DNA of 62,892 nt, filler included, from Platydemus manokwari (taxonomy: Eukaryota): NCBI GenBank assembly GCA_037951405.1. It is 6 parts of 6 records of this genome, joined end to end, with 100 filler letters (N's around TTAATTAATTAA, not from the genome) between each part and the next. Parts side by side here need not be neighbours in the genome. Positions count along the whole stretch, not along the records: positions 41,757 to 50,960 come from JBBMOY011283428.1; 5 more parts are not named here. One strand, written 5' to 3'. Below, one piece after another: positions 7,001-53,019 of this stretch; the first letter of the stretch is position 1; each line of letters starts with the position of its first letter. The notes under the pieces were generated by a model. It was not told the origin of the DNA, searched no databases, and saw nothing but the letters and a program-made list of their open reading frames with translations. A program made the translations under genes and the position numbers.

Positions 7001-7070
7001 AATTACTGATACTTCTGTTAAAATCTACATTAAGTTTAAAATAATTCAGTTTTCGAATATTGATTAATAT

Positions 7071-8606: not shown

Positions 8607-8832
8607 CCCTTTCAATACGACTTTTGGCCAGTGAAAAGATTTTTGTATAACTGAACTATATTTACATAAGGAACATATTTACATAATTTCTGATTTTTAG
8701 AAAATATTATTATTTTTTGAAAAAATGCCTTGGGACACATATGTCCCTGCAGTAGTTTAATGCGAATGTTTTTCGCATCAGTAATTTTTTAACATTCTCT
8801 GGGACTTATATATCCCCGCAGTATTGAAAGGG
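8607..8832. mobile_element. piggyBac-like MITE (226 bp)
   Basis: Perfect 12-bp TIR CCCTTTCAATAC / GTATTGAAAGGG with TTAA on both flanks (8603-8606, 8833-8836). Internal repeated GGGAC..ATAT.TCCC.GCAGTA at 8732 and 8801. Confidence 0.88.
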
Positions 8833-9675
8833 TTAAGGTAACTTGGCGATTAATGAAAATCATCTAACACCGGAAGAATTTTCAACATCCTTAATGTTTT
8901 ATTTTAATTTGGTTATGGAGAGACGCAGTATCGATCAAAGATTTTCGTTTATTAGAGCTAAATGATATTTGCAACTCTTTATTTTCAACTTTTAGAACAA
9001 TTTTTCGTACAGCTAACAGTATCATCTTTAGCATATACTTTCTCGAAAGTGGAAACTTTTCTGACTTAAAATGCTTAGTGTAGAAGTTGATCATCGCGGT
9101 TTGATAAAACTAGGTCACATGTTCCTAAAAAAATTAATGTTGATAAGCTCCATTTGTAAATCATGGTGTGTATTCTCTACATCCACATCAAATAGAGATA
9201 CAAATATTCTACTCTCAATTTGGTAAAGCAGAAAGTTAACGAATCTATCCACAAATTTCTCACGAAATTTACTGATTTCTTAAAAATATTTCTTGATGTC
9301 TGATGTCTCTAACTTCTTTAATATTTGACGTGTAACGTTTTGGAGTCACTGCTTTTTTTATTTCTTTAAAGATTATTGTTGGATTTGATCGAAATTTACG
9401 ATTTAATCAGTACTCAGTGTCCGTCTTGACGTTCAGGTAGTTATATGACCTATGTCCTTGCAATTAATTCTCTAGAATTAATTCCACTATGACAGAGTAC
9501 TTCTATGCGATTAAATGCACGGTAATTTATTTTATTTAATACATTAATATCATTTTATTTAATGCATGGATATAATTTTATTCTAGCTGGATATTTCATT
9601 CGAAGTGCGCGATAACTTATTCTGCTTGATTATTTATAGATAATTTCACTATTCATATTGTTTTAATAAGTGAAA

Positions 9676-9890
9676 TTATTATAAGGTAATTTTAACGATT
9701 TTATTTTATTATATCAACGCCGGATTTCTTATTTATTATGGGGATTATAAATTGAGGTTAAAATTATATATTATATTAAATTATGTTCCCGTTAGTCACG
9801 AAGTCTCCCCGAATTATTATAAAAATGCTTTTTACTTTAAAATTTCTAGCAATTAAAAAATTGTTATAAGCCCCAAAATCCAACAGTTGT
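9676..9890 (+). repeat. Dispersed non-coding repeat, copy 1
   Basis: Aligns by eye with 20773-21040 (ttattataaggtaattttaa...tatatcaa.gccgg...gggattata.attgaggtt.aaattat...gccccaaaa). Confidence 0.75.
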
Positions 9891-10829: not shown

Positions 10830-10929
10830 NNNNNNNNNNNNNNNNNNNNNNNNNNNNNNNNNNNNNNNNNNNNTTAATTAATTAANNNNNNNNNNNNNNN
10901 NNNNNNNNNNNNNNNNNNNNNNNNNNNNN
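10830..10929. other. Artificial contig linker N44-TTAATTAATTAA-N44
   Basis: Exactly 100 nt. The core has stops in all six frames. Five identical copies in the window. Confidence 0.97.
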
Positions 10930-13225: not shown

Positions 13226-14347
13226 CTATTTTATTTAAATGCCTTTTCTTTCGCTTTGTCTAGCTTATTTTGTCATTACTTAAATATTTAGTTATGGCAA
13301 ACTGGTATCACCATTGATAAATCATTGGCACCACAAGCACTTAATGGTCATCAAATCAATTCAACCATTTATTATTTACTTAGCAATTCTCAAACATTTC
13401 TCAATTACAAAAATCTATCGACTATCAAAAAAAATCACTACGAGAAATATTTGAGTCAAGCCGCTCATTGCTATTTTGGACATGACACATTGTTAGTTGT
13501 ATTATTTTGTTATTTAACCATTCCCATATTCAAGTAATTGGTGTATATAATAGGTTATATAGTTATTGTTGATTTGATCTTTATATTGGATTAAGTCAAT
13601 TTGGAGCCATACATTTTGAAGAGCAAGTGACTAATTTGAACTGTTCGTATTATTATTAAAATATTTTTAAAAATTACATGATATATTTTGAAAATAAGAT
13701 CTTATCACTGAACTCATTTATAGCTATAATATTATAAATAATAATTCTATACTACTGGCATGTGCAGCGTTATATTATATTGTTGAAACCAATGTTTATG
13801 TTCTTTTTAACAGGATTGGATCAATCTGAATTCAGTAATTTTGATAATACTTTAAAATTTTGCAGGATAATATTTTGATTTCATGGCATTTTGTATCAGT
13901 ATCTTTTATGATATGTTATTTTGCTCTAATGATCCATGAACAGTTAAAACTCTTCCAGATTTCGTACAACCAGAATTATTTATTTATAGTCTATCTGGTT
14001 CTAAACCATTTTATCGAAGCTTATGGTGTATTCTACTAACTCACATAATTTATGAGTTATATTACTTGCCCAAATCATAGCTTGTATTATCTCAGAGTTT
14101 CCTTTTTCTCAATTTGTTTTGGCAGTTTTTTACTGAGTTGGTACTTAATTTATACTTGTATTGATATTTTAGTTCGCCTTAAGACTCAAAGCTAGAATAA
14201 TAAGCTTTTCTCTGAAAAGGAGTTTGTTGCTGATAGCCTATTTAAAAGTTATAAATTAAAGAGCTCTTTTTTAGTATTCAGACTTGAAAATCCTTTCTAA
14301 ATGAATTATTTTTATTTTGTATTTATTGGAAATTTGATTATTTTCAG

Positions 14348-15712
14348 ATATGCTACTCATCTGTGGACGCTTGTATCAACCAAATCTGATATAGATAATC
14401 TAATTAAAAAATGGCTTATTAGTTTACACAAAAATGGATGTGGACTTCTTATTAAAGCAGGAGCACACGGTCTGATCCAAGCAATAGTCTACAGTGCCGG
14501 ATCGTTTAATTTTGCTGGTGATCATATTTCATTCGGAATGCATCCCAATGATTTGCAAAGACGGTTGCATTTTAGAAATCTTCAATACAAAGGACTTTCT
14601 TCACCAAAATTCGATGTAGCTGTTGATCTTGATGTCGATAATCGACCTCAGCTTTTCGTTTCCATAAAAGATAAAAATGGCAAATTATATGCTTGTGATG
14701 CCGGTTGCGTAGATGCACCCATTCAGTTAAGGTTAGAGATTAATGATTTGGAATAATTTAAATTGATTTATTTTATCTATATTTACACGTTATTGTTCTA
14801 TTGTCAAGTAATAAGACAGCATATTTGAGGACATTTTTGCAATTTATTACACCCCCCCCCCCAGATGATCCACCTTCAATTTTATCAATACATTAATTTG
14901 TTCAATGTTCTACCTTTTTATTCAGTGTCCATCTTTTAAATGAAAACTTTCGCGATTCTTCATTTTTGGATTACTTCTTAGCAATATTATTCCATTTGAC
15001 TTTCATTCTTTCATTCATACTAAATGCTTTGTTGATACAAAATCCTCGACCCAATCATAGCGTTGGTTTACAGATATATATAGTACATACAGTGAAATTG
15101 AATTCAAATCTTTTTATATACTCAACCCATTAAGCATCCAATTCTCACTTCCAATAACTCGAACATTCAAAATTTCAGAAAATCAAAACTTTTTAATCAT
15201 TCAATTTAATTTTGATTCCATCTCGAATTTCATAAATCAGATATTATAAACAAATCCTCTAAATTTATTTCCGAAAAATTATTAAAAAACGTCTAAATCC
15301 ATTTGTGTTTGTTTTCAGTTCCGTTATGAAACTCATGCCGGTTAAATTGACGAAACCTCGATATCCAATACTTTACATTTCCGATGAACTGTCACATATT
15401 GACGAATTGAAGCACATCATTCATGTCAGGGATATTGAGGATGCCAAAGCTCACAATCATCATATCATTGCTCTTCACAAACATGGCCATTCGTGGGGTG
15501 GTTTGCCACCTCTTTTCTGGTTCACGATTATTCTACTCGTTGTTGTGTTTCATCTTTTTCTCTGTAAATTGATCTATACGGAATATTGTCGATACAGAGA
15601 TGATTATGATTTATCAATGTCAGATTCTGCAAGAACTCCTGAAAATAGTAGAATAAATTACCACTACATACCTTCTACCCGGCGAAATCAATATTACAGT
15701 ACATTACATTGA
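14348..15712 (+). CDS. KIAA2013: KIAA2013 (DUF2152) homologue, last two exons (14348-14731, 15319-15712)
   Basis: W..SL.K.GC..L..AGA.G.IQA.V.S.G, YACDAGCVD.P.QL, T.P..P.LYIS....H..EL.H..H and GLP.LFW..I..L..VFHLFL.KLIY.EYC match my recollection of the KIAA2013 C-terminus. The GT-AG intron is in phase. AATAAA near 15897-15906. Confidence 0.9.
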
Positions 15713-20672: not shown

Positions 20673-20772
20673 NNNNNNNNNNNNNNNNNNNNNNNNNNNN
20701 NNNNNNNNNNNNNNNNTTAATTAATTAANNNNNNNNNNNNNNNNNNNNNNNNNNNNNNNNNNNNNNNNNNNN
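20673..20772. other. Artificial contig linker
   Basis: N44-TTAATTAATTAA-N44. Confidence 0.97.
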
Positions 20773-30011: not shown

Positions 30012-30111
30012 NNNNNNNNNNNNNNNNNNNNNNNNNNNNNNNNNNNNNNNNNNNNTTAATTAATTAANNNNNNNNNNNNNNNNNNNNNNNNNNNNNNNNN
30101 NNNNNNNNNNN
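30012..30111. other. Artificial contig linker
   Basis: N44-TTAATTAATTAA-N44. Confidence 0.97.
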
Positions 30112-30800
30112 CCAGTATTTCGTAGTGTTCTTCTATCGTTTTTGAGAATATTAGTATGTCATCCAAATATACCATGGCTCCTTTTTCTTTAATATCCATA
30201 ATATTTTTGTCAACAATTCTTGAAATGTTCCTGGTGCTGTTGCAATCTCAAACCGCATCTGTGTAAAACAGTATTGCCCCTCTTTCGTCGAGAATGCTGT
30301 TTTGTCTTGTGATTATTTGTCAACCTCTACTTGATAATATGCATTTCCCAAGTCTACCGATGTGAAATACTTAGAGCCATGTAGAGTGTCTAATAGATCA
30401 TCTATATTTGGCATGGGAAACGCTTGTCTCTCCGTTATTAAGTTTTGTTGTCGAAAATCAAGGCATAATCTTATATCCTTTCTATCTTTTTTCCATATAC
30501 ATACAAGTGGCCTATTCCACGGAGAATTACATTTTCTTATAATGCTATTTTCTCTATAATTCTTGATTGCCTCTTCTATCTTTCCTTCTAAATTTGCTGG
30601 TTGTCTTCGAGGTTTGATATTTAAGGGACTCCGATTTGTAACAATCTTATGTTTTACTAACTTTGTACAATCCCAATGGTCAGCCATGAATAAGTTCGCT
30701 TTTAAAATTCTCCATATCCTTCTTTCACTGCAAGGCATTTTTTTGCTTTCTTGAATCTATCTTCATCGGTTATATTCCTACCAAATCTCGCTGTTATCTC
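30112..30800 (-). mobile_element. Ty3/Gypsy reverse transcriptase fragment (element A)
   Basis: SPWNRPLVCIWKKD..IRLCLDFR..N...FPMPNIDDLL..L.GSKYFTSVDLGNAYYQV, then KTAFST..GQY, APGTFQ and YLDDILIFS (about 30158-30169). One in-frame stop. Confidence 0.93.
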
Positions 30801-30849
30801 ACAAATGGAGGTATTTAATTTTGTTTGTTTGTGATGAGGGTTATTTTGC

Positions 30850-33800
30850 CATTGTAATTCTAATCCAAATTCTTCTTGAAACTATATTCCGCAGAAAATT
30901 CTACAACCTTTTCTTTTACCAGTGAATTTCTTTAAGTTTGTGGCTACTGATTTTAGCTGGTTTTCCACATGTCTTTGACCGTTCTAATCATCCTTTCAGC
31001 TAAGCCATTTCCAAAACATATTGCTAATTCTTTCATTTCCATTCCTTCGAAGACTCTGTCTCGATCAATGAGCATTGATTTTGGGGTAAGATATCTATAG
31101 ATCCATTTATCGATAATGGCCTTCCAAATACTTGTTTCATCTTGTCGAATAAGTGGCACCAAGCTTACTAACTTACTGAATCCATCTACTATAACCAATT
31201 AATATCTGGTTTTAGTCATAAATTCAGCAAAGTGCACAACATCAACCACGATCTGTTCCAGAGGCCCAAACTCTTCCCTTAGCACAAGAATAACAATTCC
31301 GTACTTCATGTTCGATGCTTCGTGATATATTTGGCCAAAAGTAAATTTTTTGAATATAATCGACCAGTTTCTTCATTACCAATATGGCAAAACTTCTCAT
31401 GAAAGTATCTCGTAAGTTTCTGCGAATAAACCTCTGGTACAACAATTAGTTTCTTTTCATTCTCATTATACACCACCATATATATGTTAAATATTTACTT
31501 CTGCTTCTGTTTTCCTTAACCATTTTCGAATGGAACCAACGACAGCATCTTCCTGTTGAATATTTCTTAGTTCTTCATTATTTGCAATCGAATGCTCGAC
31601 ATCATTAATAAACCGATATATTCGCTTACCTTCTTTAGCATCTTGGTGCTGAGTTAAGCATTGTGAACAAAATGCTTCGCCTATCCTTGAGAGTCCATCC
31701 GCATTTCCATGATCTGATCCTTTCCGATATTAAAGTTCAAAATTGAATCCGGATAAGTTTGCAAACCATGTTTGAAACTGAGGGCTTATCAGTTTGTTAG
31801 ATTTCTTCATGTATGTCAAGGCTTTGTGATAGATGCGGGTCACAATTTTCTTTCCCAACAAATAATGTTTAAAGTGCATAGTAAACTCGTGGATTGCCAA
31901 AAGCTCTTTCCTCGTGACGCAATAACCTTTTCCATGACTGTTAAGAGTTCTAGAACCACAGGCTACTACTACTCTTTCTTTTCGATTGTCATCTAGCTGA
32001 CTTAGAACGCCTCCAATTGCTCCGAAACTAGCGTCAGTGTCTAAAATCATCTCTTTGTTTGGATCTGGAAAGGCCAAAATCGGAGCTGTGCATAATTGTT
32101 CCTTAAGGTTTCCAAAACTTTCCTCACACTCTAAACTTTACTCCAATTTCTTGTCACTTCGAGTCATCATCGCAAATAACGATGCTGTAATTAATGCGTA
32201 ATCCTTGATAAATAATTACATAATAATTACATAATCCTAGGAACGAGCTCAGCTGAGTGATGTAACCAGGTTTAATTGCTTCCTTAATTTTCTTTACTTT
32301 ATCGTCATTAGTTTGTATACTTTCTGCACTGACCGTATGACCCAGGAAATTCAATTTTCTAGTGGCAAAAGTGCATTTCTCGGGATTGATTTTCAAACCT
32401 GATGATTTAATTAACCTTAATACCTTGTTCAATTTATCATTGTGTTCCTTTACTGTTCTTCCATACACTAAAATATCGTAGAGATAAACCAGAACGCCTT
32501 TGTAAATCAAGTCCTTGAATATAGTATTCATTTGACTCTGAAACGTTTCTGGCGCGGTACATAATCCAAAAGGTAGTCTGTTAAAACAGAACTGCCCAGT
32601 TCTAGAGCTGGACGCCGTTTTCATTTTAGAATCTTTCTCAAGTTCAATCTATCGTGGGGAAAACTGTCGCTCCATACACTGAGTCCAATAACGTTTGAAT
32701 GTCAGGTACCGGAAAAAAAATTTCTCAGTTTGTTCGTTTAATTTTCTGAAGTCTAAACACATCCTGATCGATCCATTTTTCTTAGGAACCACGACTAAAG
32801 GAGAGTTCTAATGGCTCTTGCAAGGTGTTATGACATTATTTTTCAGAAGATTTTCTATCAATTCATGAATTTTGGTTTCTAAACTTATTGGCTGCCTTCT
32901 GGGGTTTTGAGCAATAGGTTCCACTTTTGTACGGATTTCGTGCTTCACCAAATTTGTTAATCCCAAATCGATCCGAGAAGCCATAAAAATTGAACAATTT
33001 TCTTTTATACACCTATTCAATGAAATATCGTTCTGGTTAGCAATACTCTTCAGTGCCATTTCGATTCTGTCTTGGTCGCTGTATTTCTTTCCCACATCCT
33101 TGGGAACAATTGATTTTATCCTTGCAAGGAATATTTCACAAGTCTTCATCATATCAACTCCTTCGATGAATCCTGGTGAAATTTCTTTTACAACAATGAT
33201 CTCCTTTACTAGAATTTTGTTGTTCCAAGATATTGGATCCTTATTTTCCCTAGACGCGATTTTGTGTATTGGAGAATACACTAGCCAATCGAACTTCCGA
33301 ATTTTTAATCTGCGGCTCTCCAATGCGCTTCCAATTGCTCTCGTTAATTACTGTTATTGATGCACCAGAATCCCATAACGTTTCGATATGTTTGCCGTTG
33401 CACTCAATTTTACTACACTGTCTTTCATCTGCTTTCTAATACATCTGTGAATGTTTCCTCTTGCCGTTTTCCTTCTCTGCTTCTATTCTATCTCTAGCTA
33501 ATATATGTCCTATTGACTCAACTCCACTGACGAGATAGGCACAGGAGGTTGATTCGAATTTTTTTAGTCTTCCATGGAGAGTGAGCTTACACAATCACTT
33601 GCTTCACTTTCAGTTTAAATATTGGCTTCATCTTCTTCGTTATGGATGCATACGGAACGAGTGTCTTTCTTTTCCGCATATCAAACATTTATTCCGCAGT
33701 GGACATTCAAACTTCCGGTGTCCAAGCTCACTACAGCAAAAACAAGCACTTGGTTTCAAAAAATTGAAACGTGATGTGGGTTTTCCTCTACAATCGTTGT

Positions 33801-34573
33801 AGAATTTAGTAGCCTTCATTGATCTTATTGGTCTCTCATTGTTTGGAGATTCAGTGCGATTAACTGATGCTTGATGCGCTTTCCTGCACAATTGGACTTG
33901 GCTTTTTGAATTATGTCTCCATCTTAAAGGTCTTTCTTGGTTCACTTTGAAATACCGACTGAGCATATATCTTCTTGATGGCGTTTATGGTCTTCGTAGG
34001 AGTTAACTTCTCAAAATTGACAGCTAGTTCTCTTCTTCTATCGTTGGACATTGCAGGATCGAGAGTAAAAGACTCTTTCAATTTCTTGCTATTTAAACCT
34101 TGTAGAATAAATAGTCTTGAAATTTCTTCAAGAGTGTTTTTCTTGTCAAACACTCCAAAACTAGGTTCTTTACTCGAAGTTCATAATTGCGATATTTTTC
34201 ATCTGATCTTTGTTGTTGTGCTGCCAAATCCTGAACCTTGTCATAAACTGTTTTTGCATGTGAAAATGTTTCTAAAAACCATTTCTCAATTTCTTCATTT
34301 GAAACAGCCACTTTGAAACTGCTGAATTCTTGCAACAGTTGTTTGGCGTCATCTCTCAAAAGCATATCAAATGCAAATGATAGTTCCATTTGATTAAAGG
34401 TCGCGAAGTCTTTGGTTGTTTGGAACCATTTCTCAGCGTCTTGGATTGATAAATCGAAGAATGATGGTTTTTGTATTCATAGTTCCTGCGTTTTTTCTGG
34501 CAGATTTGCAAAAGTTTTCTGCCTCTCTTCTCGTTTAGCTCTAGTCAGAGCGTTCATTTCGGCGTGGTCGCCA
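30850..34573 (-). mobile_element. Decayed Ty3/Gypsy retrotransposon internal region (element B): PBS-gag-PR-RT-RNaseH-IN
   Basis: gag with two zinc knuckles (CFCCSELGHRKFEC; CLICGKERH...), protease LWDSGA (33361-33378), RT LPFGLCTAPETFQ and YLYD (mutated YLDD), RNase H ILDTDASFGAIGGVLSQ and ELLAI, integrase IVDGFSK and GNGLAERMIRT. Gypsy domain order. Many frameshifts. Confidence 0.93.
34560..34573 (-). promoter_or_regulatory. Primer-binding site TGGCGACCACG (tRNA-Arg-like)
   Basis: The plus strand reads CGTGGTCGCCA, like a tRNA-Arg 3' end with CCA. It lies immediately upstream of the gag ATG (34557). Confidence 0.75.
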
Positions 34574-38799: not shown

Positions 38800-40688
38800 C
38801 CTCGTCCTCCTGGCTTTAGAATTACTTTCAGGGCTTGCCACGGACTGCTTTTCTATTACTCATACTTCTGATGATCGGCAGAATATGCGCTCATGAGATG
38901 CTGCTATCTATGTCTACGTCTGGAGTAGCATTCTACAGCTCCATTGTTGATGTTTCTTCACTTTCCTTTCTTTCTATTTCCGGTGAGTGCGCCGGTGTTC
39001 CATTTCTAACTTTATTTCGAAATCCTCGTCTTCATCTATTTCTAAGACTTGTTCCTCTTCCATTTCTTTCTCCGTCTCCTCCTTTTCTCTTATCCAGTCA
39101 CTGCATTTCTTTATTGTTACATTCATTTTCTTTGCTTCTTCATGCATCTCTTTCATTTCTTTCTGATCCTGTCGTAACTCTCCTATTCGTCCTTGTAGCG
39201 CCTCCGCACTATCTCATTTGTTTGTTATTTCATTTGCTTTCTCCTCAAACCTCTTCATTTTCTCTTATTTCTTCTACCTTCCTTTGCATCTCCTCCATTT
39301 CTTACTTCGTCTTTTTTCCATTCGGATTCTTCTTCCTGCTTCCTCATGACTGCCTTGTATTTGCAGCTCCATTAGAACAGCTCCTCCAGATCTTCCTCTT
39401 CATTCCAGCGGCTGATGTCTACATCCATGTCTTCTATTCCCAGATCCATATCCTCTGTTTGTTCAACCAACATTTACTCCATCCCGCTGGTATTTGGGCC
39501 TGCTTCTTCCTTTGTCCGCTGTCCTTTTCTCGGCCAGTTCTCCACAGGGAACTGTTCTTCCCTTAGATGTTATCGTAACATGTGCTCATAAGACCTCTTT
39601 GGTAACATTGATTCCTTGTCCTTTACTTCCTCATTTAGCGGAATCAATCTCCATGCCCGTTGTGGCGGCTCCCGTTCCTTTATTATCTTTCTCGGCATCA
39701 TGGGTATTGGATCTACCCATTCCAGTACCTCTTTTAACTTGACCCTTTCTACTTCCTCATATCTTTTCACTTTCTCTTTCCAGTGGTTGGCTTGGCTGTC
39801 CAGCAGTGCTCCTTGCCTCATTCCTCTCCCTATAATATGGTAATAGATATCTTGTAACCGATGCGTAGTTGCAATTCTTCTCCCATAACCTCCTTTTTCT
39901 ATTTGCCCCTCTTTTACCAACTTTTGATTGACTATTGGTGCCCCATCAAAGTCTCGGATGCCCAGCACCTCTTCCGCTCTCACTCCTATTGCCATCAACT
40001 TTTCCTTGAGTCAATAACCGACCAGAATCCTCCGCCGCCAGATTTCTCTGAGCCTCACCGTGGCCCATTCTTCTTCCATCAGGTCTCTTACTTCGTATTC
40101 CTCAATGCCCCCTCTATCCACATGGTATTTTTTGATCTCTGCTCTTGGGCAGATTTTTCCTTCGAACAGTGTCACTCTCTCATAATTCTCTATTGCTGCC
40201 CATGTGGGATGAAATTCTCCCACGAAATCTTCCGCCGTCTTAACATCAATAAAATAAGGGCTTCCTGTTCTTCCTTTATCGTTATTTTCTTCCTTAGGAA
40301 ACTCAGGCTTCTGTCCAATGCCTGAAAGTGTGGTTTCATTTCTGCTATTATGGGATTAATGGGTATTTCAGCCAGCCACTTCCGTCCTTCTACCATTCTC
40401 TGTTCTATTGCGAAAATGGCCGGGAGGTCTGATACGCTAATTATAGCGCTCCTATAACTTCCCAATGCGACAACTCTTCTAACTGGAACCGTGTTTGGGT
40501 GATTGTTTGTACTATTAGGAAAGTGCGCTTATTTTGGGTCGGGGCCTTAAGCTTGTTGGTTATATCTTCTACCCTCTCGTATTTTCTAACCCATATATTA
40601 TGTGCAGTACCCTTGACTATAGACTGCTGCATAGCTCGTTAAAAACGGTTTGGGTAACTTGCTTTCTGGGTCTGTTTAGCATCCAAAT
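38800..40688 (-). pseudogene. Frameshifted accessory ORF3 of a Gypsy-derived element (about 600 codons; globular N-half, E/K/R-rich C-half)
   Basis: Consecutive ORF pieces 40632-40441, 40465-40190, 40223-40011, 39998-39570 and 39156-38974. Purine-rich coding-like strand. Peptide similarity to 43840-44700. Confidence 0.65.
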
Positions 40689-41044
40689 CTGAAATATAAT
40701 ACATTAATTTTTATAGAAATATCAATTTTTGGTGAATGACAATGATATATGATAATGCTCATTTTATTTATTGTAGCTATTTCTCCTTGACGGTGATTGA
40801 TATTGCTATTAGGTCATCACCTCAGCTTCAGTCTCTGCTTTGGCATTTTATTTTATTTAATTTTTTCCCTTATTTTATTTTATAATTATATATTTTGATT
40901 ACTGTTACTGTTTATAGGTGCCGTTTGCTTTTATCCTTTATGTTAATATTTATTATAGGTTTATATTATTTATAAATAACATTCATATTGGTTATAAATA
41001 CTCATATTCAAACATTATCTATCTACATAGTTTACTTCTTCCCT

Positions 41045-41185
41045 TTACAATTTCGTTTCCAAGACCCCATTATACATGGTATTTGGAGGTCTATTTCTTC
41101 GTCTTATTTTCCGAATATAATTCCCTGTCAACATTGTAACCACCGTCATCGTGACGGCCAAGATTACTCCTCCTATCTTCCTTTG
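41045..41185 (-). pseudogene. C-terminal transmembrane anchor and basic tail of an env-position protein
   Basis: Frame not in the ORF track: QRKIGGVILAVTMTVVTMLTGNYIRKIRRRNRPPNTMYNGVLETKL*. Confidence 0.5.
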
Positions 41186-41430
41186 TCACTCTTTGACTTG
41201 ATTTGGGTGGCAGGCTTAATCGCTCCGGTTCCGCAAATGTTACAGCATTCATTGCAGAGGAATTCATCTCACAGTGAGTATTTGTGGGGAAACCCATCCC
41301 ACAAGTTAATTCCAATCGACGCGCTTTTAATATTAAATCTTCCAATGTTGAGCATTCCGCTATCGCCAGCGTGCTCTTGAACGCACTGTTAATTCCTCGT
41401 TTAAATTGATCGTGTAATAGAGCATAATTC
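41186..41430 (-). pseudogene. gag capsid C-terminal-like fragment
   Basis: LLHDQFKRGINSAFKSTLAIAECSTLEDLILKARRLEL fits the retrotransposon gag pattern L..QF..GL......L......TL......A...E. Confidence 0.65.
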
Positions 41431-41656
41431 TTGGTTTTCATTAAAAATATTGTTATGTAAACAAATACATTAATCACTAGAGAGGAGAGGAAAAGAACAT
41501 AATTATTCTTTTTCTCCCCTTTCTTGTGATTAATAGCAAATCATTAACATACACGTCATTTTGAAGCTCTATTCATAATCTATCAAAATCAGTCAACATT
41601 GTTTGATTTGTTTATACGCATCATATTTGTTTTAATTATGGAACATTTTGAAAATT

Positions 41657-41756
41657 NNNNNNNNNNNNNNNNNNNNNNNNNNNNNNNNNNNNNNNNNNNN
41701 TTAATTAATTAANNNNNNNNNNNNNNNNNNNNNNNNNNNNNNNNNNNNNNNNNNNN
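41657..41756. other. Artificial contig linker
   Basis: N44-TTAATTAATTAA-N44. Confidence 0.97.
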
Positions 41757-43129
41757 GAAAAGGGGAAGACCCAGAAAAGATGTAGGTGATGCCGAAGAAG
41801 CAGTCACCGAAGAGATAGCATTTAAGGCAAGACAATTAGAAGATGAGAAAATTAAACAGCTGATAAAGTGTGTAGAAGGAGAAGCGATTCCCCCGGAACT
41901 AAAAGTTCACTAGAGAACTCATGGAACAAATTACATAATAAAGAATGAAGTATTAAAATACAAGAACAATAGAGGGGAGTTATTGGTAATTCCCAAAGAG
42001 GAACAAGAAGCGTTGTTGCTAAAGTATCATGATGAAGCTCTAGGAGGGCATCTATCTGTAAGAAAGACGTTTCAGAGGCTGAAAAGGAATTATTGGTGGC
42101 CAGGAATGAAAGAGGATGCTAGAAAATGGTTCAAGACATGTGAATATGTCAAACACGAAGAAATATAGGAACCAAGACAAGAGTGCCATTACAGCCAATA
42201 GATATAATTCCAAAACCAATGGAATTCACAGCAATGGATAATATGAGACCATTGCTCAAAACAACCAAAGGAAATCGATATATTTTTAGTATTTTGCGAT
42301 TATGTCACGCGTTGGCCAGAAGCTTTTGCAATGCCAAACCATAAGGCAGCAACGATTGCCCAGATATTCGTGGAAGAGATAGTGTTCCGGTATGGAGCAC
42401 TGAGGAAAATACTGACAGGTAGAGGAAAGGATTTCCTGAGCAATATAATTGCGGAGATCTGTAAATTATTCCACATAATAAAGTTGAGTACCTCGCCATG
42501 TAGACCTCAGACAGATGGCCTGGTAGAAAGATTTAATAACACTTTGAGAAATATGCTAGCCTCTTATACAAGTACAAATCAGAGAGATTGGGACATACAC
42601 ATAGGATCGTGCATATATGCATACAGGAATACGGTGCACAGTACCACTAAAGAGACACCGTTTTATCTAATGTATCTAAGGGATAATAATATGCTCATAG
42701 ACTTGGAGTATGTTCAGCCTTCATCTCAGTATATGGATGAAAAAGATTACAAGACGAAAATGCAGGAGAGGATGCAAACCGCTTGGAAGAGAGCAGGATT
42801 ACAAATCAAGTATAGTCAGGAGAGCTATAAGGAAGCTTACGACAAAAAGGCGAAACCTCACCAGTTCAAGTTAGGAGATCAGGTACTAGTAGATACCCTG
42901 CAAGCGGTAAAAGGACTCTCCAAAATTGCTGAGAACATTTAAAGGCCCGTACACTGTGAAGAAAGTGAGGCCTACTAATTTACAATTAAACAGAAAAGGA
43001 CCGGCTGTACCATTGATAGTCCATGCAAATAGATGTAAGCGAGTAACAGAAGTAGAACCGAGTCTACATGCGCTACTTTCCAGGACAAGAACAGTAGCAA
43101 CAGTAACTACCGGAAAAGGAGTGAAGTTA

Positions 43130-43699
43130 CACAAATGGTTTTGGATGCCATTGTGTATATTGGCATTGATACTAACTACGGAAACAAAAAAGGATTTAGA
43201 GAAGAATCCTAAAATGCCCGAATTCTACTTCGAAATAGAGGCAAAGAGAATCACAGCGCATTGTGATTGCGACAGTGATCCGCTGGTGTCAATGGCCTTA
43301 TTATTAAGAGAAGGAAATAGAGCCGAAGTTTATCTAGGAAAACATAGGAATAAGGTTTCATTTAATAATTTAAGATCGTCACGCGTTTACTGGTTTGAAG
43401 CAGTGGTTTCAAGCAAAAGTGACCGCAGGGGGAAAGCGAGACAGAAATACAGAGTGAAGACAAGGTGCAAACGCGCTCATTTGAAGAGAATGGATACCGG
43501 ACCAGAAAGAAGAAACGAATTAAAACAGGGCGAATGATCTTTAAGATCCATAGAGCAATTGATGATAATAGGGTTTGTAATGATAGCCATTGCAATCTTT
43601 ATAGTAATAATAACGTTAATAACAAGAATGATAGTCAGCTACCATCAGCAGAATATAAGTTTAAACAGAAACAGGAGAACCCAGGATACTCAATGTTAA
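43130..43699 (+). pseudogene. Type-I membrane-like protein fused in-frame after integrase (signal-like segment, FN3-like ectodomain, TM helix); one internal stop at 43535
   Basis: WFWMPLCILALILTT ... KVSFNNLRSSRVYWFEAVVSS ... *SLRSIEQLMIIGFVMIAIAIFIVIITLITRMIVSY...QC*, all in the frame of ORF 42926-43537. Confidence 0.65.
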
Positions 43700-43700
43700 A

Positions 43701-43778
43701 AGTACAGTATATAGTGTATCTGCTGTATAAAGTAAAGTATAGAGTACAGTATATAGTGTATCTACTGTATAAAGTAAA
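43701..43778 (+). repeat. Tandem duplication, 42-nt period (36-nt unit, 1 mismatch)
   Basis: AGTACAGTATATAGTGTATCT(G/A)CTGTATAAAGTAAA at 43701 and 43743. Confidence 0.9.
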
Positions 43779-43839
43779 TTGTTTAAGTTCTTTAGTAAAA
43801 CGAGTATCAACTAATATTAATGATTGCTTATATTTTAGA

Positions 43840-44740
43840 ATGAGAAATAAACTCACCTCAGCAGAAACAGATGAAAATATAGTATCAAAGAGAAAAGGAA
43901 AGTCGGTAAAGAAGACGGTAAAAGCACGAATCTTTTATGACAGAATAGAAGCCTTCATGAATGTCAACCATTGGTGGCAGATCAATATTACGAGGGTACA
44001 GGATATACCCAATTGCCTCAAGGAAAAAGCGGTGGAAAACAGAAGAATGTTTCTAAGAGCAAAACCGCAAGAAAGCGAATTACCAATAAAAGGACTGATA
44101 GAGGACCAAGAAGAGATCGAGATTAATAACGTCCTCACAGCCATTGAAGTTGCCATCCCGGAGATGGGATGGAAAACCATAGTAATACCATATGTAACAG
44201 TAAAGATTGAAGGATCCAGTGAAGACCTCAAAAAGATAGTGATCAGAAACGTTTACGAAGAAAGAGGAATGTGGTCACTGACCATATTCGATAAGAATCA
44301 ACCCAATTGGGGAAAGGCACCCCGTCAATCCAAAGAAAAATTTGGGGAGTTGAACAACAAATCGAAAATCACAGATCCTTTTTGTGAATGAGAATGGCGG
44401 AGAAGAATATTAAACGAAGAGTGCGATTTGTCCATGTGGCATTAGCACAACCGGAATTCGCCATTGGGCTTGTCCGATAGCCGTGAATATATTAGACTAT
44501 CAAGTGGAACTGACGTACTCGAACGTAATCACTCCAGGAGCCAGAATCTTGGATTACCGAACTCCTCAACATGGCCTAATCGAAGAAACGGTGCAAGGAA
44601 GAAGAGATGAACTTTTGGCCAAGGAGGAAATAAATAAACTATTGAGAGGAACAATAGTTATTGACCACAGAGTATTAGAAGGACTAATAGCTCTAAGAAT
44701 TTGCCAGTACCGTATCAAGTTAAGATTTATTTTATTATAA
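43840..44740 (+). pseudogene. Accessory ORF3 of the Gypsy element, unknown function
   Basis: ATG at 43840 just after TATTTTAG. Open to 44391, continues past TGA as EWRRRIL, then frameshifts into ORF 44483-44740. Confidence 0.65.
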
Positions 44741-45973
44741 ACTCGATATTGTTTAATTGTTCGAGGAAGACGTAATCCCAAACAATAGTTTATTAGTGTA
44801 TTTAGTAATTGTGAATCGTGTTAGAATATTCGCGGATAGTGTATCCCGAATATTGGTATATCAATAAAAGAAGAGTCTTAGTATTGTGATATTCGTGGAC
44901 AGTGCCCCCGGAATATCGGTATTAGTATAGAGTAATTGTATTGAGGGTCAGTAACCCGATACGCACGCTGGTATTGTAGTAGCGGCCAGGAGTAGCTCCT
45001 CGGCTAGTAATTCAATTTGGTGAACGGACTAGAACCGTATTTGTTGACAGAACATCAGTAGGGGCTAGGCCCTGGTGAAACTAAATCAAAGTTGTAGATT
45101 TTTTGTAGAAATATAACTTAGTGAGCAACAACTTTGTTTTGATTTTTGAAGTCAGGAGATTTGGAGGATTGTTGCGCTCCACAGTCGGTAGAAGCAACGA
45201 AAGTGACAAAACATATTTTTAAAATTCCTTTTCCAGAGGGATTAATTGTCAATCTTAATCAGGTTTAGATAAATATATTTAAATCATTTAATAATTACTT
45301 TATTTAAATAATCCAAAGTAAATTTTAAAATATTAAATTCTGATATTTATTAAATTATTTTAAATCGTAATTAAATTTTTTTTATTAAAATGTTTATTTA
45401 TAATTATTATTATTTTATTTGGATTTCACTCACACTTCACAAATTTAAATTTTCATTTTAAGACCCTTTTTTAACTTTAGCTGAATTTTCGCTTTTTAAT
45501 GGCGATTATTTACCAATTATCATTGGATAAATGAATATTTCTATAATAGAATAGTGAATTTTTTTGGATAATTGAGACAAAAGTGTTGGTTTTGCACGTG
45601 ATTTTCTTTGTAATGGCCATTAACAAGTTATCGCTAGATTGATATTTTCAATTTTTAACGATTATCGTAGAGTCTGGATTATGTCTACGTTATCCATTAA
45701 TGGATCTCATCGAGTTTAGAATAAAAGGACATTAAAAGATTCTATGGTAACATTTTATGAAAAAATAAATATTTTTTATAAATTTTAGAATATTTTTGAA
45801 TAATAAAGAAAATTATCGATTGATAAAAATTATAATTTTTCACGATTTGAATTTGTTTGACAAGGTTTTTCAATTTTCAATCAAACAGACCACTCAGCAA
45901 TCGATAAAAAAATGTATTCAAATCATCAATGAATCTGTGAGTCACACAATTGATTGAGTGATGGAGAATGTTT

Positions 45974-47404
45974 TCATTGGCAATTCGAGACTCTTTTGAC
46001 AGAGCATTTGATGAAAATCTGATCTCTCCAGCGCACCGCTGGATTGGCTGATATTTCTTCCAGTGCAATAAATCGAGTAAAACCACGCCCGATATTTCTA
46101 TCACTTGTTGGTTTGAGCCATGCTGTGCTGTCTGGTAAATCAGAATATTTTCTTGTCATTGCCAAATGAGCAAGGCCATTGAATTGATTGATTAGTGAAA
46201 ACTCGACATCATATTTGAGTGGCCATTCGAGATCATCATCGGATGACCCTTTCATAATACAGGCATAAATTGATAAATAATATCCTTTTGCTTTGCGAAA
46301 GCCATTTGGATCTGCTCGAAGACACATTTTATAACCGCCGCTATGAGAGTAGAAACTATCACTGTAAATTGTTAAATCGACGCCATTTTGCGCCTGTCTT
46401 CTTTTGTCTGCCCAGTTATCAATTTTCCAGATAAATCCAAACATTTCTCGCAACTCGCTCGACTGATTTTTTAAATCTTTGATTTCATTTTGCATTTCAT
46501 CAATGGATTGATTTGTTTCTATGGTTTCTGTTTTCATTTTATCGCCTCTCTGTAAGATAGCTTTCAATTTAATCTCGACATCCTGATAAAATATCGCGAT
46601 AAATTATTGATTAATTATAAAATTTACCGTTTGAGTTTCACATTTGTTTAATATTGTTGTTATTTGTTTTGTGAATTTATCAATTGTTTGGAATTCATTT
46701 TCGACATCTTTCATCAATTGTGAAATCTAACAGGCTGACAATAACTATATTGATTATTTAAAGATCCATTTTACTTGTTTTTTCTTTTCATTGTCTGCAG
46801 TTTCCAGTTCTGATCTCAAATTTCCGTTTTGAGTTTTCAAGTAAACCATTTCATTCAATTTTAATATTCCAATCGAATTGCTTTCTTCTCGTTTCTGCAA
46901 ATCTCGAATAATTTCCTGAAATAATCAATAATAAACTGAATTCTTTTCAAAAGAATTTTACATCAGATTTGTCTTCAAGTATTTTCATTTTTGCTCTTAA
47001 ATCGGTATTTTCCAATCTCAAGTTATTGAAGTCTATATTGATTGATTGAATATTGTTTTGCAGTGTTTTAATCTATACAAAACGTTATCAATCAATCGAT
47101 TATTAAGTAATACATTTTACTTGTTTAGTCCTTTCATTGCTAACGTTTTCCAGTTCTGAATTGTATAAGTTTTTCAATAAAACAATTTCTTCATCCAATA
47201 TTTTTATTTCATTTTTATTCTCCTTTGCGACTTTTTGCAATTCCTTAACAATTTTCTGAAATAATCAATATAAGCAAAATTCATCATGAAAATATTTGAC
47301 CTCGGTTTTTTTTTCATGGATTTTTTTCTTCAATTTCTTCTTCATTGATTTCAAGTTCATGTTTCAAATCGGAATAATTTGAATATATATGTTGAGAAAT
47401 AGAT
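45974..47404 (-). CDS. TRAF-like coiled-coil + MATH domain protein; exons 47404-47301, 47255-47121, 47072-46962, 46915-46775, 46726-46628, 46582-45974
   Basis: FIWKI..W, IYSDSFYS..GGYKMCLRADPNG, YLSIY.CIMKG..DD.LEWP, GF..FI, DQIFIKC.V identify a TRAF-C/MATH domain. Five phase-0 GT-AG introns of 45-48 nt. Frame of the most 5' exon is ambiguous. Confidence 0.9.
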
Positions 47405-48239: not shown

Positions 48240-50171
48240 CTTGGAGTACATCAGTAAATTTTCTAGATGCAAACCGTCCCTCTTCGGAAAAGCCTCTATC
48301 TAGGTAATTCATGTATCTCGATGGCTTTTTATTCCTGGTAGACCTCTTTGTTTTCTCGCCCGTGTTTTGTAATATCTCCTTTTTTGAGTCATTACTTCCG
48401 TTGATGATGCTTTGCCGCTTGTTTCGATACTCGCATCATTGTCCATTCCTCCATCATCATTTGCGATATTATTTATTATCCGATTTTCTTTACTTGATTA
48501 TAATTTCGTTGAATAATTTCATATAACTTCTGACTATAAAGCTTATAAGTCGATTCATTTATTTTCTCTAAAATCTTGAATGGACTTACAAATCTTTTAC
48601 CAAAAGGTTTGTAAAACGGATTTTCAATCATGACTATATCGCCACTGATAATTCATGGGAATATTTCCCTAGGTTATAGCATTTTGATTGCTTCACAATC
48701 TGATTCTTATTATAATTCTGTACTTCTTCGAAATTTTCTTATGATGATTCGTAAACTCTTCCATAGTTTTCCTTTTATATTGCTTTGCCTCATTAATATG
48801 CTTTAATCGAATAAGCTATAATAATCTATGGAAAATTTTCTATGATACCTAGTATAAACCGGTTTCCTTGTTTCGTTTCAGGATATGGTTCTGCAGTATC
48901 GATACCAACAAATTCGAACGGCTTATTTGTAATTATTGATTGCAATTTAGCTCTAATTCTTCCATCAATTTCCTTAGTTGATGAGCATTCAATACACGTA
49001 TGCACGTATTAGTGAATATCTTTTCTCCAGTCTGAAATTCGTTTTCAACTATTGTAGTTGCTTTCTCTATCCTAATTTTTCTATGTCCTAATTTTTCATG
49101 GATCATTTTAACACACGTCTTAATATCACATTGAGGTACTATATAACGATAAATGTTATTTTTCTTATAGTATAATGCATCATCTCTAACTCTAAAGTAC
49201 TCCATCTTTTTCCAAATATTTTTGTAACGAGGTATTTTTGATAAATCCATGACACTCCAGCTGAGAATTGCATTTATCATAATTTTCAATTCTTCATCTT
49301 TATTTTGATCTAAAAATTTCTCTTGTTCCTCTCGACATAAAACTTTCTCATTTTCGTTACACGATACATCGCTTTTTTGTAGTCCACTTTTATATTACGT
49401 CTTTTTGTGGGTTTTGATGCTTTATAGAGCATTGTTCACAATGTGGAAATCGTGATATCGCATTTGCATCGATGTGTTCTTTTCCTTTTCTATATTCTAT
49501 TTCCATTTCGAATATTTCTAGCTCTGCTTTCCATATACAATATTGTGATGTATTTGGAGAATTCCAATTCAGCAAACCATTTTAGAGCCACATGATCAGT
49601 TCTGACAATAAATTTCTTACCATATAGGTAGTGTTTAAATTTTTTAACACATAGATGGCTAGCAACTCTTTTCTTGTTATACAACATTTACGCTGCGCTT
49701 TGTCAATATTCTTGATGTGTACTCTATCACTCGTTCTTCACTGTTTTGTATTTGAGAACGCACAGCTCCTATAGCACTGAAAAATGCATCAGTATCCAAA
49801 ACATATTTCCCTTCTTTGCATGGCAAACTTAGAACTGGCGGTGAAATTAATGATGTTTTTAATTTGTGAAAAGATGCAGTTGCTAAATCGTTCCACTCAG
49901 ATTCACTCTTTTTCTTCAGTAATTGGTATAGTGGTTGGGTAATACCAACAAAATCCTTTATAAATCGACTATAATAACGACATAATCCCAGAAATTCCTG
50001 CAGTTCCTTGTCACATTGAGGTTTTAAACAATTCAGTTCGTCATCTAAGTTCTGTTCAATATTTTTTAACATTTTATCGAGTTTACTTTCTCGCTTTTCG
50101 GAACATAAATTATACAACCCAACTGAATTCCCAATGTTGTCCTCGTTTATTTCATTTATCTCTTCTAGCAA
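48240..50171 (-). mobile_element. Decayed Ty3/Gypsy pol (RT connection, RNase H, integrase) with deletions
   Basis: LQEFLGLCRYYSRFIKDF, PPVLSLP...YVLDTDA...AIGAV.SQ, FKHYLYGKKFIVRTDH.ALKW, YRKGKEH..A.AISR, HEKLGH, PFEFVGID. Confidence 0.9.
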
Positions 50172-50960
50172 ACTAAATTCTTTCCAGTATAAAATATTTA
50201 ATGATTTACTGATTAACTTTCGAATGAGTGTTTCGACAAGATTTTAGTCCCCGTTGCAATAAGATCACTAAAATAAATCGAAATATTAATTGCTATCAGT
50301 GATTATGGTATAACTATTATTGTGATTGTAATATTAAAATGACAAAGTGAACTAAGCAAATTTTAAAAATGAAAAGGTTTTTCTCCGATTTCGAGGCCAA
50401 ACATTGTACTGAGATAATCCCAAAATGTCGGCTAGACTGGTACTGAAAATTTTCAAAATGGAAGAAAGACAATTAATAATGGTTTGTATAATTAACTAAA
50501 CTATTACTTCGTAAATTCTGCCATGAATTTTTAACAAAAGGTAACTCACTATTCTGGAAATTCAAATATCTTTCGCAGTAATCCACACAATAATAATTAA
50601 TGGTATTCTTTGTAAAATCAAAAGTTAATCAAAAGCATTTCTTCACAATAATCTTCTTCCTCTTTTGTGAGTGAGATATACTGATTTGTGTTCAGTTCAT
50701 ATACTATTTTTAAAATGTGTTTTTTTCCATTTTGAAGTGCTGTATCTAGCGTGATCGTTTTTATTATCAAATTCTTTAGTGTTTGACTTCTATTTTTATT
50801 TGTTCAGAAGCTCGGTAAATGTTATTTATTTTACATTCATTTTAGTCTGGCTTAAATTATTTATTTTACATCTTTTTGCTTTTGAATTATCAATAATTAC
50901 TTTTTTATTATTATTTTATTTTATTATTTTTATTATTATTAAAAAAATTAGGGCTAAACG

Positions 50961-51060
50961 NNNNNNNNNNNNNNNNNNNNNNNNNNNNNNNNNNNNNNNN
51001 NNNNTTAATTAATTAANNNNNNNNNNNNNNNNNNNNNNNNNNNNNNNNNNNNNNNNNNNN
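50961..51060. other. Artificial contig linker
   Basis: N44-TTAATTAATTAA-N44. Confidence 0.97.
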
Positions 51061-51130: not shown

Positions 51131-51944
51131 TATATAAACTGTAAATATTTTAATACGTTATTTTCTAACTTTTGGGGATGTTTAAATTCTTTAAGTAATT
51201 CAGTATATTAGTTATTATTGTTTCAAGTCTTAAAATATTATATGATTTGACTTCGAGCATGAGAAAATGTTATAAATTAATTTTATATATAATTGCAATA
51301 TTTGATTTATGCATGTAATTCACTTATTATCTCATCTTTATTGGATATCTATTAGGAACAATACGGTGTTTGCAAACCAAGTTCCTATTCTAATCACAAC
51401 ACTTCTAGATGATTATTTGGGTTTTTCAATTTAAATTTTTTAAATTACAAATCGACTTAGTTAACCACAGACATGTTTATTAATATAATTACTTATTTTT
51501 ATAAAATAATTGTTAAAATTGAGAGTATTTCCCAATGCGCTTCTAGTGTTAAAATAGGGTTCTCCTCAAATTTTCGACCTACTTTGATCCCTTTTTCATA
51601 TAATAAATTTTAAGAGATTTTGTAGCTCTAGTGTACTTAATAATTGTTTTCAAACAACTAAAATTCTTTTTAAGTGCTCCAATATAAAGTTCAAAATGTT
51701 TCTAAAAAATATGATTAAATAAACTATATAGATTTTTGCAATACACTCAATAAATTAAAACCCTTTTTCTTAACTTTAGCCTCTGATTCGATTTAATTTC
51801 ATTATGTTTAGCAGAACATATTATTTTAATAGAAGCCTAGAATTGTAAATTTATTTTATATCTTGATAAAATATTAGTCTTCTTTCATAAGAATCTCATG
51901 TTCAATCAGTCGTTTTAAAGTTTAAATTACTAACAAACACTCAC

Positions 51945-53019
51945 GTTGATGAAGTCTTTACCATATGTCGTTCTTAAATCTATGTCACCATCTGGTTTTC
52001 TATATTTTTCTGGTTCATATTTAAATGGTTTAGTAACATCATGAAGCTTATAATCAACACGATGTGTTGTTTCATCCGATAAAGGTTTATCGATTTGAAT
52101 GAAGTGTGGTGGTGGTTTGAAACTCTTTTGAGGACAGACTTCTTTTGGGGTAAACTCTTTTCTATGAGTAGTCAATGAATCAAGTGGTACACGAGTTTGA
52201 ACATAACACGGTTTCTCTTTTTTAACTTTTGGTTCAAGCGGATGATTGACATATGATTGACGATAGTCTGTTTCTTGTGCTAATGGGTCGGTACTTTTCA
52301 TAAATGTCGTCGATGGCTTGAAATTTTTAGGCGGAGCTTGACAATGTGGTATATAATCACGTGTATAAGATGGTATACCATCGAATCTTTCGGTGTTTGG
52401 ATGATATACATCAGGAATATGCTTGACCGGTGGAGGTAAATCCCATGGTCGATAATCCCCTAATTCACTGGTTAAATTATCCATCGAAAAATTAATTAAA
52501 TTAACTTCTATTTGTTGATTCACCCTCAAACTTTGCAGGCACTTGCCTCGATGGTGCAGGCTTGGTAGAAATTGTAGGACACGATGTTTTCGGACCGAAT
52601 TCTTTTCTGTACATTGTTATATCATCAATTACACCATCTGGTTTGATATAATCTGGTGGCTTATGCTTAGGTGGTGGTTCCGCACAACGAGGAATAAAAT
52701 CAGTTCTTAAGACGAAAATTTCGTGACACTTCGAAATTTATAAAATGCTCACCGATGAGTAGTTTCGCTTGATAATGGACCTTCTCCCAACATGGGCTTA
52801 AGTATTGGTTTGTGAGACTTGGTTGGACAGACTTCGTGTGGCACATATTGAGTATTATATTCAGAAAGATTACATTTATCCCATGGTCCTGGTGGGTGTA
52901 ATTTATGTGGGCATCTATGTCTCCTTGAAATTTTTTTTCATTTAAAATATTTATATTTTTATTGACATAACTTACCCACAATTACATATTTCACAAACGC
53001 ATGGTAGTTTAGTAGACAT
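51945..53019 (-). CDS. Stabilizer of axonemal microtubules (SAXO1/2, FAM154-like), 3'-partial; exons 53019-52976, 52923-52753, 52705-52506, 52459-51945
   Basis: N-terminus MSTKLPCVCEICNCGRHRCPH. Repeated Mn-like motifs (ETTHRTDF, ESTNRRDY, PSYTRDY, ETDYRQSY, TTHRKEF, ETTHRVDY, TTYGKDF). In-phase introns of 52, 47 and 46 nt. GTGAGT donor at 51944. Confidence 0.9.

Follow-up and report, generated by a model that had tools for sequence, protein, structure and literature searches.

In nematode BEL/Pao elements such as Cer7 and Cer13, pol and env share one long frame. When Gypsy elements are surveyed for envelopes, the baits are known fusogens and env is sought as an ORF of its own, and a membrane protein inside the Gypsy pol frame would therefore be missed. 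We have analysed a stretch of 62,892 nucleotides from Platydemus manokwari (the window), in which a dead, ordinary-looking copy reveals what is apparently an undescribed variant of Gypsy organisation. As in Cer7 and Cer13, the env-position protein would form the C-terminal end of the polyprotein, but those elements belong to a different superfamily and carry a virus-derived fusogen, whereas FN3/Ig-type domains are predicted here. Our search of the literature, mostly main texts of open-access papers, found neither an FN3/Ig-type membrane protein encoded within the pol frame of a Gypsy element nor a Gypsy gene of ISG20-like type.

The nearest precedent, going by the accessible part of PMC4299795, is the CrocERV31 lineage, a crocodilian retrovirus in which a captured three-Ig-domain nectin3 replaces env and whose authors speculate on a role of this protein in spread. 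In common with that lineage, the present elements carry a multi-domain adhesion-type membrane protein of predicted Ig fold at the place of env, under purifying selection. CrocERV31, however, is a vertebrate endogenous retrovirus with a recent and recognisable host mRNA as its source (~76% identity), while our protein belongs to a Gypsy element, lies in the pol frame and has no detectable host source. For env-carrying Ty3/gypsy elements (errantiviruses), the available portion of PMC13524379 describes only env of the F type or the HSV/gB type, in separate ORFs, with gB-type env in flatworms in the order GAG-ENV-POL; the word 'fibronectin' has 0 occurrences in its main text. These elements share with our locus a signal or hydrophobic stretch, an ectodomain and a helix downstream of the integrase. 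But the errantivirus env is a separate ORF and a large trimeric fusogen, whereas here the protein continues pol (two related loci, L001 and L008, carry the module in the pol frame) and small beta-sandwiches are predicted in place of a class I or III fusogen fold.

In insect MDG1-group retrotransposons, sORF2/FAST-like proteins, as described in the accessible text of PMC11952523, are 63-107 aa long with an ectodomain of ~30 residues, are often myristoylated and have their own ORF; they belong to envelope-less LTR elements, and a model of direct cell-to-cell transfer is given for them. Placement in cell protrusions together with capsids is a further mark of the class. Our protein resembles them in being a predicted single-pass membrane protein with a basic patch after the helix, but it has a predicted folded ectodomain after a signal-like stretch inside pol and is larger (126 aa in the window, ~460-475 aa in L001 and L002). 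Bdelloid Juno/Vesta elements carry non-env ORFs after pol as ORF3 cargo, among them a DEDD-superfamily exonuclease and small ORFs with two TMs, 210-230 aa in length (PMC5408684, accessible part, with 0 occurrences of a fibronectin or immunoglobulin fold). In Juno/Vesta the nuclease is of DEDDy/RNase D-like type and ORF3 stands apart from pol, while the nuclease-like part found here matches the DEDDh ISG20 group.

The pol end and its extension in the window copy

The window consists of pieces joined by five N-spacers, and the element starts at the assembly spacer at 41657-41756, so that gag, protease and RT are out of view in this copy. TRAF-type MATH, SAXO and DUF2152 genes encountered in the analysis suit an animal host. 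A decayed pol end with the RNase H-integrase bridge, the H2C2 zinc finger and the integrase core occupies 41757..42942 on the plus strand, as judged by Pfam, by frames and stops, and by identity to L001 and L002. Pfam recognises Integrase_H2C2 (E 1.6e-17) and rve (E 4e-05), and the core is 62% identical to the integrase cores of both loci. The Ty3/Gypsy arrangement is present, with the integrase after RNase H and with the H2C2 finger, core and GPY/F module (reference for the module: PMC2774666, accessible part); the order from RNase H to integrase is seen in L001 and P0003. In the window integrase a stop lies at 41911, and the frame shifts near 42142, 42283 and 42915. With one stop and three frame changes in its integrase this copy is dead. 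The change near 42915 separates the integrase core from GPY, and since the two thus sit in different frames, the fusion to pol is visible intact only in the relatives. The stretch is multi-copy: 1243 contigs of one public run (X1) lie on 41761-45300 at 80% likeness, with 30/30 bins covered. Other copies among these contigs vary in length at all three frame-change sites; inside the extension one length difference is found among the 12 of 26 rows listed, and it equals a whole codon.

The frame from 42911 carries GPY, a signal-like stretch, the ectodomain, a TGA, a helix and a tail up to the TAA at 43697-43699. The GPY module (42944-43045) and the short basic tail motif that ends the integrase in this lineage lie within 42911..43090 (+), identified by protein matches and by the motif in the relatives. 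Among 1.84 billion protein representatives, 5 match the extension query, over the GPY part only (E 1.8e-05 to 1.7e-04). An internal signal sequence is predicted from hydropathy at 43133..43186 (+), in the GPY frame; its signal-like stretch of 16 residues (43133-43180) has a best 11-residue Kyte-Doolittle mean of 2.55. Between this stretch and the helix are 126 beta-patterned residues. They include a predicted single FN3-like beta-sandwich of ~90 aa at 43205..43477 (+; ESM Atlas and FN3 profile), with an FN3-like E-F motif at 43355-43408, and a charged stalk at 43478..43558 (+) with the in-frame TGA at 43535-43537. The frame ends with a transmembrane helix (43559-43624) and a basic 24-residue tail (43559..43699, +), recognised by hydropathy and found also in L001, L002 and L008.

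The helix has 22 hydrophobic residues and a best 19-residue hydropathy mean of 3.3. When the stretch was simulated 2000 times with a first-order Markov model, this value was reached 0 times. The presence of at most one stop in 262 codons is likewise matched by 0/2000 such simulations. Across the six frames of the window, 3 of 279 stop-free runs of at least 50 residues reach 3.3, the window helix among them. Hydropathy and the basic tail fit a type-I topology, with the stop preceding the helix in this copy. The earlier note had described the same frame running from GPY into a signal-like stretch, an ectodomain, a single TGA, a 22-residue TM and a short tail, and every one of these elements was found in its place. 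We considered that the helix could be the shadow of an overlapping Asn-rich frame (43423-44391) and rejected this, as the relatives keep the helix at the same place under selection.

Related elements and the fold of the ectodomain

The integrase-core query gave 109 pattern matches, which resolved into 10 loci, 8 at 54-62% identity and two distant ones at 34-36%. All 8 close loci carry one dataset prefix and are not independent hosts. In 5 of these 8 (L001, L002, L003, L006 and L008) the tail motif is followed by a hydrophobic stretch in one frame. L001 is a single frame of 1101 codons, running from RNase H through integrase, GPY, basic tail motif, hydrophobic stretch, ectodomain and helix to the tail; its ectodomain has two repeats and a Thr-rich stalk. 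Ectodomain length is about 460-475 aa in L001 and L002. L008 is unbroken from the integrase into the ectodomain and L002 from the ectodomain to the tail; both reach the helix, and helix with basic tail is present in L001, L002 and L008. Part of the ectodomain survives in L004 (74% to L001), L005 and L007 stop short of the module or diverge before it, and the two distant loci (34-36%) have no match to it. Hydropathy of the signal stretch is 2.28-2.96 in L001, L003, L006 and L008, and in L002 the stretch was seen by eye. The linker from the integrase tail motif to the hydrophobic stretch varies from a few to ~20 residues and is stop-free in 6/6 sequences (the window and five relatives).

Homology between different ectodomain repeats is detected by blastp (E 6e-11 to 1e-05, with the first repeat of L001 reaching only 0.05-0.08). 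For the first repeat, dN/dS is 0.10 between L002 and L008 (bootstrap 0.04-0.21) and 0.25 for both L002/L006 and L006/L008. Helix plus tail gave 0.36 (0.13-0.71), the signal and helix regions 0.36-0.37 with wide intervals, and the integrase 0.02-0.03; three more comparisons had reached saturation. Purifying selection acts on the ectodomains of the relatives. The data support the membrane-protein layout in the pol frame at the env position as a real, selected feature found across this Gypsy lineage. The type-I membrane protein proposed for this position is supported by the L001 frame, the layout of the relatives and dN/dS, its topology being predicted from hydropathy and the basic tails.

In the integrase tree, which omits L010 and a second window element (both short) as well as L006-L008 and whose root is unsure, the window integrase groups with P0003 (support 98/99). 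After the same tail motif P0003 has an aspartyl-protease-like extension and no signal-ectodomain-helix module; a P0003 query in viral contigs found none. Either the module is old and may have diverged past recognition, or the slot after the integrase may repeatedly take in cargo.

AlphaFold2 on six repeat units of the relatives gave an all-beta model (pLDDT 85, pTM 0.71), in which one repeat unit forms two beta-sandwiches. Foldseek against the PDB found 38 matches at E <=0.001 (best E 1e-04), led by tandem FN3 segments of the insulin receptor, DCC, neogenin, fibronectin and NCAM, with the Ig-domain adhesion molecule PECAM-1 also present; TM-scores are 0.3-0.4 because the two domains are hinged differently. 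With VIA-align the best match is a bacterial Ig-like domain (DUF3244, Z 9.9), followed by a flat series of Z 7-8 to FN3, PKD and other sandwiches; per domain, Ig-like and FN3 sandwiches match at an rmsd of 2-3 Å and Z 7-10. These fold matches lie at 4-16% identity. In a viral structure library, phage tail and FN3 proteins come out on top. None of the three fold searches is headed by a fusogen of class I, II or III, and no whole viral fusogen is among the matches listed. At the sequence level, the profile of the relatives' repeat had no credible match to PDB sequences (best E 0.05), and no FN3 match was found for it. A by-eye impression of the second domain as PEGA-like received no Pfam support. 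We thus predict four FN3/Ig-type sandwiches for the relatives' ectodomain; even here, the TM-scores and the DUF3244 match allow other Ig-like types as well as FN3. The earlier view that the protein is not a known fusogen holds, with two small beta-sandwiches in the relatives' repeat model and a window ectodomain of 126 aa that is far too short.

For the window domain, ESM Atlas gave a best match of 0.91 and neighbours at 0.88-0.91, with 10/10 best family matches in the fn3 family or clan, at a recognition of 2183, under the threshold of 2300. A 44-sequence bacterial FN3 profile scored 1.3-1.8 bits, with 11-12 of 1000 shuffles as high; 11/1000 is weak because unrelated control pairs reached 4/300 and 24/1000, and the score rests on the motif noticed at the outset. 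With a PKD profile ~331/1000 shuffles were as high. hhalign against the FN3 profile was equalled by 14/100 shuffles in local mode and 1/100 in global mode, the latter without a sensible alignment. A single-sequence model has five strands at pLDDT 37, where an FN3 domain is a seven-strand s-type beta-sandwich; Foldseek with it found no match at E 0.001, which is meaningless at such model quality. None of four excerpts of the domain matched a Pfam family, fn3 included, at E <=10, nor did NCBIfam and PDB sequence searches match the ectodomain. The FN3 core residues are a Trp in strand B, a Leu in the E-F loop and a Tyr in strand F; in the window domain the Leu and Tyr align with the FN3 profile, and the predicted B strand has no Trp. 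The window domain is probably of FN3/Ig type. Of the fold originally suggested, the FN3/Ig type is well supported in the relatives (AlphaFold2, Foldseek, VIA-align) and moderately in the window domain (ESM Atlas, FN3 profile), with FN3 proper as one candidate subtype.

No homology was detectable between the window ectodomain and the relatives' repeats (profile -1.3 bits, 113/500 shuffles as high; hhalign 14/100), and a by-eye alignment of the window domain to the relatives' first domain failed three tests. Among proteins of near length there were 5 candidates, none at E 0.01, and among longer proteins 611 candidates, none holding up; the 1.84 billion representatives gave no match outside the GPY part. 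Pattern matches numbered 11 in viral, 117 in metagenome and 44 in prokaryote contigs, and none of them was confirmed; plasmids yielded a single row, due to chance, at E 2, and phages none. Host capture is a conjecture for which these protein searches (near-length, longer, 1.84 billion representatives) found no cellular source.

The downstream accessory gene

Between the membrane-protein stop and the next gene lie two tandem 42-nt copies, 88% alike (43692..43775, +), and then a predicted splice acceptor (43811..43838, +) with a branch-point-like pentamer, a pyrimidine-rich tract and AG just before the next start codon. In 3/3 relatives that reach this point (L001, L002, L008), the next start codon comes just after an AT- or pyrimidine-rich tract that closes with AG. 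A stop-start coupling at the ATG overlapping the TGA was rejected, as the homologous part of the next ORF starts after the acceptor at 43838. The N-terminal part of the accessory ORF, 183 aa at 43840..44391 (+), was recognised by its similarity to the ORF after the helix in L001 (31% identity to the start of that ORF over 75 aa, E 4e-04; 8/1000 shuffles as high), and it matches no known family in sequence or Pfam searches.

The next part, at 44414..44740 (+), is ISG20/REX4-like and DEDDh exonuclease-like, and is broken from the upstream part in the window copy. ISG20 is an antiviral nuclease. phmmer matched this part to ISG20L2 (7yw5, E 2.3e-05) and ISG20 (1wlj, E 0.0015), with E 2.1e-08 once L001 was added in a two-sequence profile; Pfam gave no match. 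It resembles the middle of the next ORF of L001, with 0/1000 shuffles as high. The ISG20 match spans ~90 residues of the N-terminal half, and the first acidic pair aligns to non-acidic residues, where the window copy is broken. With this pair not evident, the part may bind RNA without cutting. The downstream gene appears to be separate and probably spliced, and its ISG20-like exonuclease fold likely binds or trims RNA. The order of signal, ectodomain, helix, acceptor and exonuclease-like gene is shared by the window and its relatives, which argues for common descent of the whole 3' region. A probable 3' LTR with approximate ends follows at 44750..45210 (+), where summed contig depth of run X1 is 4809-9840 in bins 44829-45182 versus 531-2285 over 41761-44710; no second LTR was found within the window.

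A possible attachment protein and competing readings

The reading we prefer, to which we give an even chance, is a decayed Gypsy copy whose pol frame runs on into a hydrophobic stretch, a predicted FN3/Ig-type ectodomain, a helix and a basic tail, and whose product is likely a non-fusogenic attachment protein. The stretch after the integrase would act as an internal signal sequence, the ectodomain would enter the ER during Pol synthesis, and signal peptidase would free a type-I membrane protein, with the integrase released on the cytosolic side. The surface protein would then bind a partner on a neighbouring cell and hold the contact while capsids cross by a host route, and the element could thereby be brought to germ-line or stem cells without a fusogen. 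The processing steps are modelled on flavivirus and hepacivirus polyproteins, which are processed via internal signal sequences. Since no stop follows the integrase in 6/6 sequences, a polyprotein with an internal signal is the simplest route. Attachment is favoured because it is adhesion receptors, not fusogens, that combine stalk-borne sandwich domains with a short tail. A wider proposal is tentative and, in our judgement, somewhat unlikely: a third cell-to-cell route in a Gypsy lineage, neither viral fusogen nor FAST-like peptide, in which an adhesion protein would be cut from the Pol end, its ectodomain would be swapped or resized between families to change the target cell, and it would be paired with an ISG20-like accessory protein. 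If the product is an attachment protein, LTR elements can reach other cells in a way additional to env and sORF2, and the naturally intact L001 gene opens to testing an old idea on how retroviruses arose, that of a stage of sticking before fusing. Nascent Pol tethered to the ER through an internal signal would, if true, be unusual for Gypsy elements.

The membrane protein could instead be made from a spliced or internally started message, with the shared pol frame being incidental. Env of insect gypsy elements is made in such a way, this element apparently splices its next gene, and a Met located where the hydrophobic stretch begins or close by, in the window and in 5/5 relatives compared, would permit a separate translation start. 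We nevertheless find this unlikely, as the way from tail motif to hydrophobic stretch stays open in all six sequences despite the varied linker, and a start at the Met would shorten the hydrophobic core, most of all in L001. A decoy or modulator, which would mimic a host receptor, block the entry of competing elements or dampen immune signalling at the host surface, would suit the cytokine and growth-factor receptor ectodomains among the best fold matches and the ISG20-like domain of the element. This role is quite unlikely: fold matches at such low identity name no ligand, the tails are too short for signalling, and FN3 folds are equally typical of adhesion molecules. A small fusogen, either sORF2/FAST-like or a reduced viral envelope, would fit the env position, the single helix and the basic residues after it; sORF2 genes can sit downstream of pol (PMC11952523, accessible part), and one VIA-align row corresponds to a domain of EFF-1, a fusogen (Z 7.8). 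That row, however, covers 80 residues of one Ig-like domain and is tied with many unrelated sandwiches, the ectodomains of 126 to ~470 residues stand against ~30 in sORF2/FAST, there is no free N-terminal myristoylation motif, and fusogens head none of the fold searches, so that we hold this reading to be very improbable.

Two further questions concern the window copy itself, its small size and its TGA. Seven contigs of run X1 match the stalk and helix but are unlike the window before 43476 (median 108 letters, ~300 in one record). The ectodomain is thus longer or different in some copies, and 'small' may be specific to this copy. Together with the four sandwich domains and Thr-rich stalk of the relatives, these contigs speak against the small size as a family trait. 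They also favour the view that the window's protein is a shortened remnant of a multi-domain form like that of L001, and that the one-domain version never worked. We see this as possible, at rather less than an even chance, since the frame is preserved across 43476, contigs cover both sides of it, and the unlike sequence could stem from an insertion or mark a subfamily whose ectodomain was swapped. It concerns the size of the window copy only and is compatible with the attachment reading for the lineage. The TGA at 43535 had been put down to mutation or readthrough. Programmed, leaky readthrough would give a mostly secreted domain and some anchored form; a single clean stop between domain and helix with an intact frame beyond is in keeping with this, as is the absence of 43535-43537 among the 40 of 528 difference rows listed for run X1. 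But that absence says little, because the clear decay stop at 41911 is missing from the same rows. The passage from ectodomain to helix is free of stops in L001 and L002, no stem follows the TGA (z 0.38; 125/200 shuffles fold as well), and there are four other breaks in ~1150 bases of window pol. For these reasons the TGA is probably a decay lesion and programmed readthrough very unlikely; of the two earlier options, mutation is the better supported.

All four tails examined (window, L001, L002 and L008) are basic next to the helix and end in Ser/Thr-x-hydrophobic or Cys, and these ends presumably resemble a class I PDZ-binding motif, a likeness noticed after the fact.

Basic motif at the end of the integrase and cargo behind it

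Members of the integrase group differ in the cargo that is appended in frame behind a common tail motif. In P0003, the protein with which the window integrase groups, residues 580-1003 following this motif form aspartyl-protease-like domains, and in P0004, another member of the group, it is followed by an unassigned non-hydrophobic stretch (residues 65-211). The basic tail motif itself, with which the integrase ends, is located at window positions 43073-43090 and is found at the same place in the related Gypsy loci L001, L002, L003, L006, and L008. It may be similar to the motif by which foamy-virus Gag binds nucleosomes.

Overlapping codons and the flank of L001

Both in-frame TGA stops of the 3′ region are overlapped by an ATG in another frame, at window positions 43534 and 44388. 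These overlaps are probably due to chance in A-rich sequence. In the L001 locus, about ten tandem 64-nt repeats are observed in the presumed LTR region (the L001 features span 5849-6680, 6935-7165, and 7344-7748). Downstream of the repeats lies a frame of 77 codons that includes a hydrophobic stretch, followed by a gag-like frame. The locus possibly consists of two elements in head-to-tail order, in which a small ORF precedes gag.

Other decayed elements and host genes in the window

The window contains five identical assembly spacers (10830-10929, 20673-20772, 30012-30111, 41657-41756, and 50961-51060), spaced by about 10 kb and each built of 44 N, a 12-base pin with stops in all frames and 44 N; pieces flanking a spacer are not necessarily neighbours in the genome. 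Two more decayed Gypsy fragments are found on the minus strand, at 30313-34476 and 48539-50243, with zinc knuckle, RT, RNase H and a distant integrase. Their likeness to the L001 pol is just about 21-26%, and nothing in either of them matches the membrane module. The minus strand at 38820-41540 also contains several purine-rich frames that run for 110-150 aa without a stop. They perhaps derive from a further decayed element, as its gag or accessory region; a Pfam search with four of them gave no match.

About 800 bases away from the end of the main Gypsy element lies a minus-strand ORF with a TRAF-type MATH domain (45974-46603; Pfam MATH_2, E 2.3e-26), with a coiled-coil stretch upstream of it. 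Pieces of host genes are also identified, DUF2152 at 14301-15712 on the plus strand (E 1e-29 and 2e-24) and SAXO1-2 at 51930-52616 on the minus strand (E 5.7e-13).
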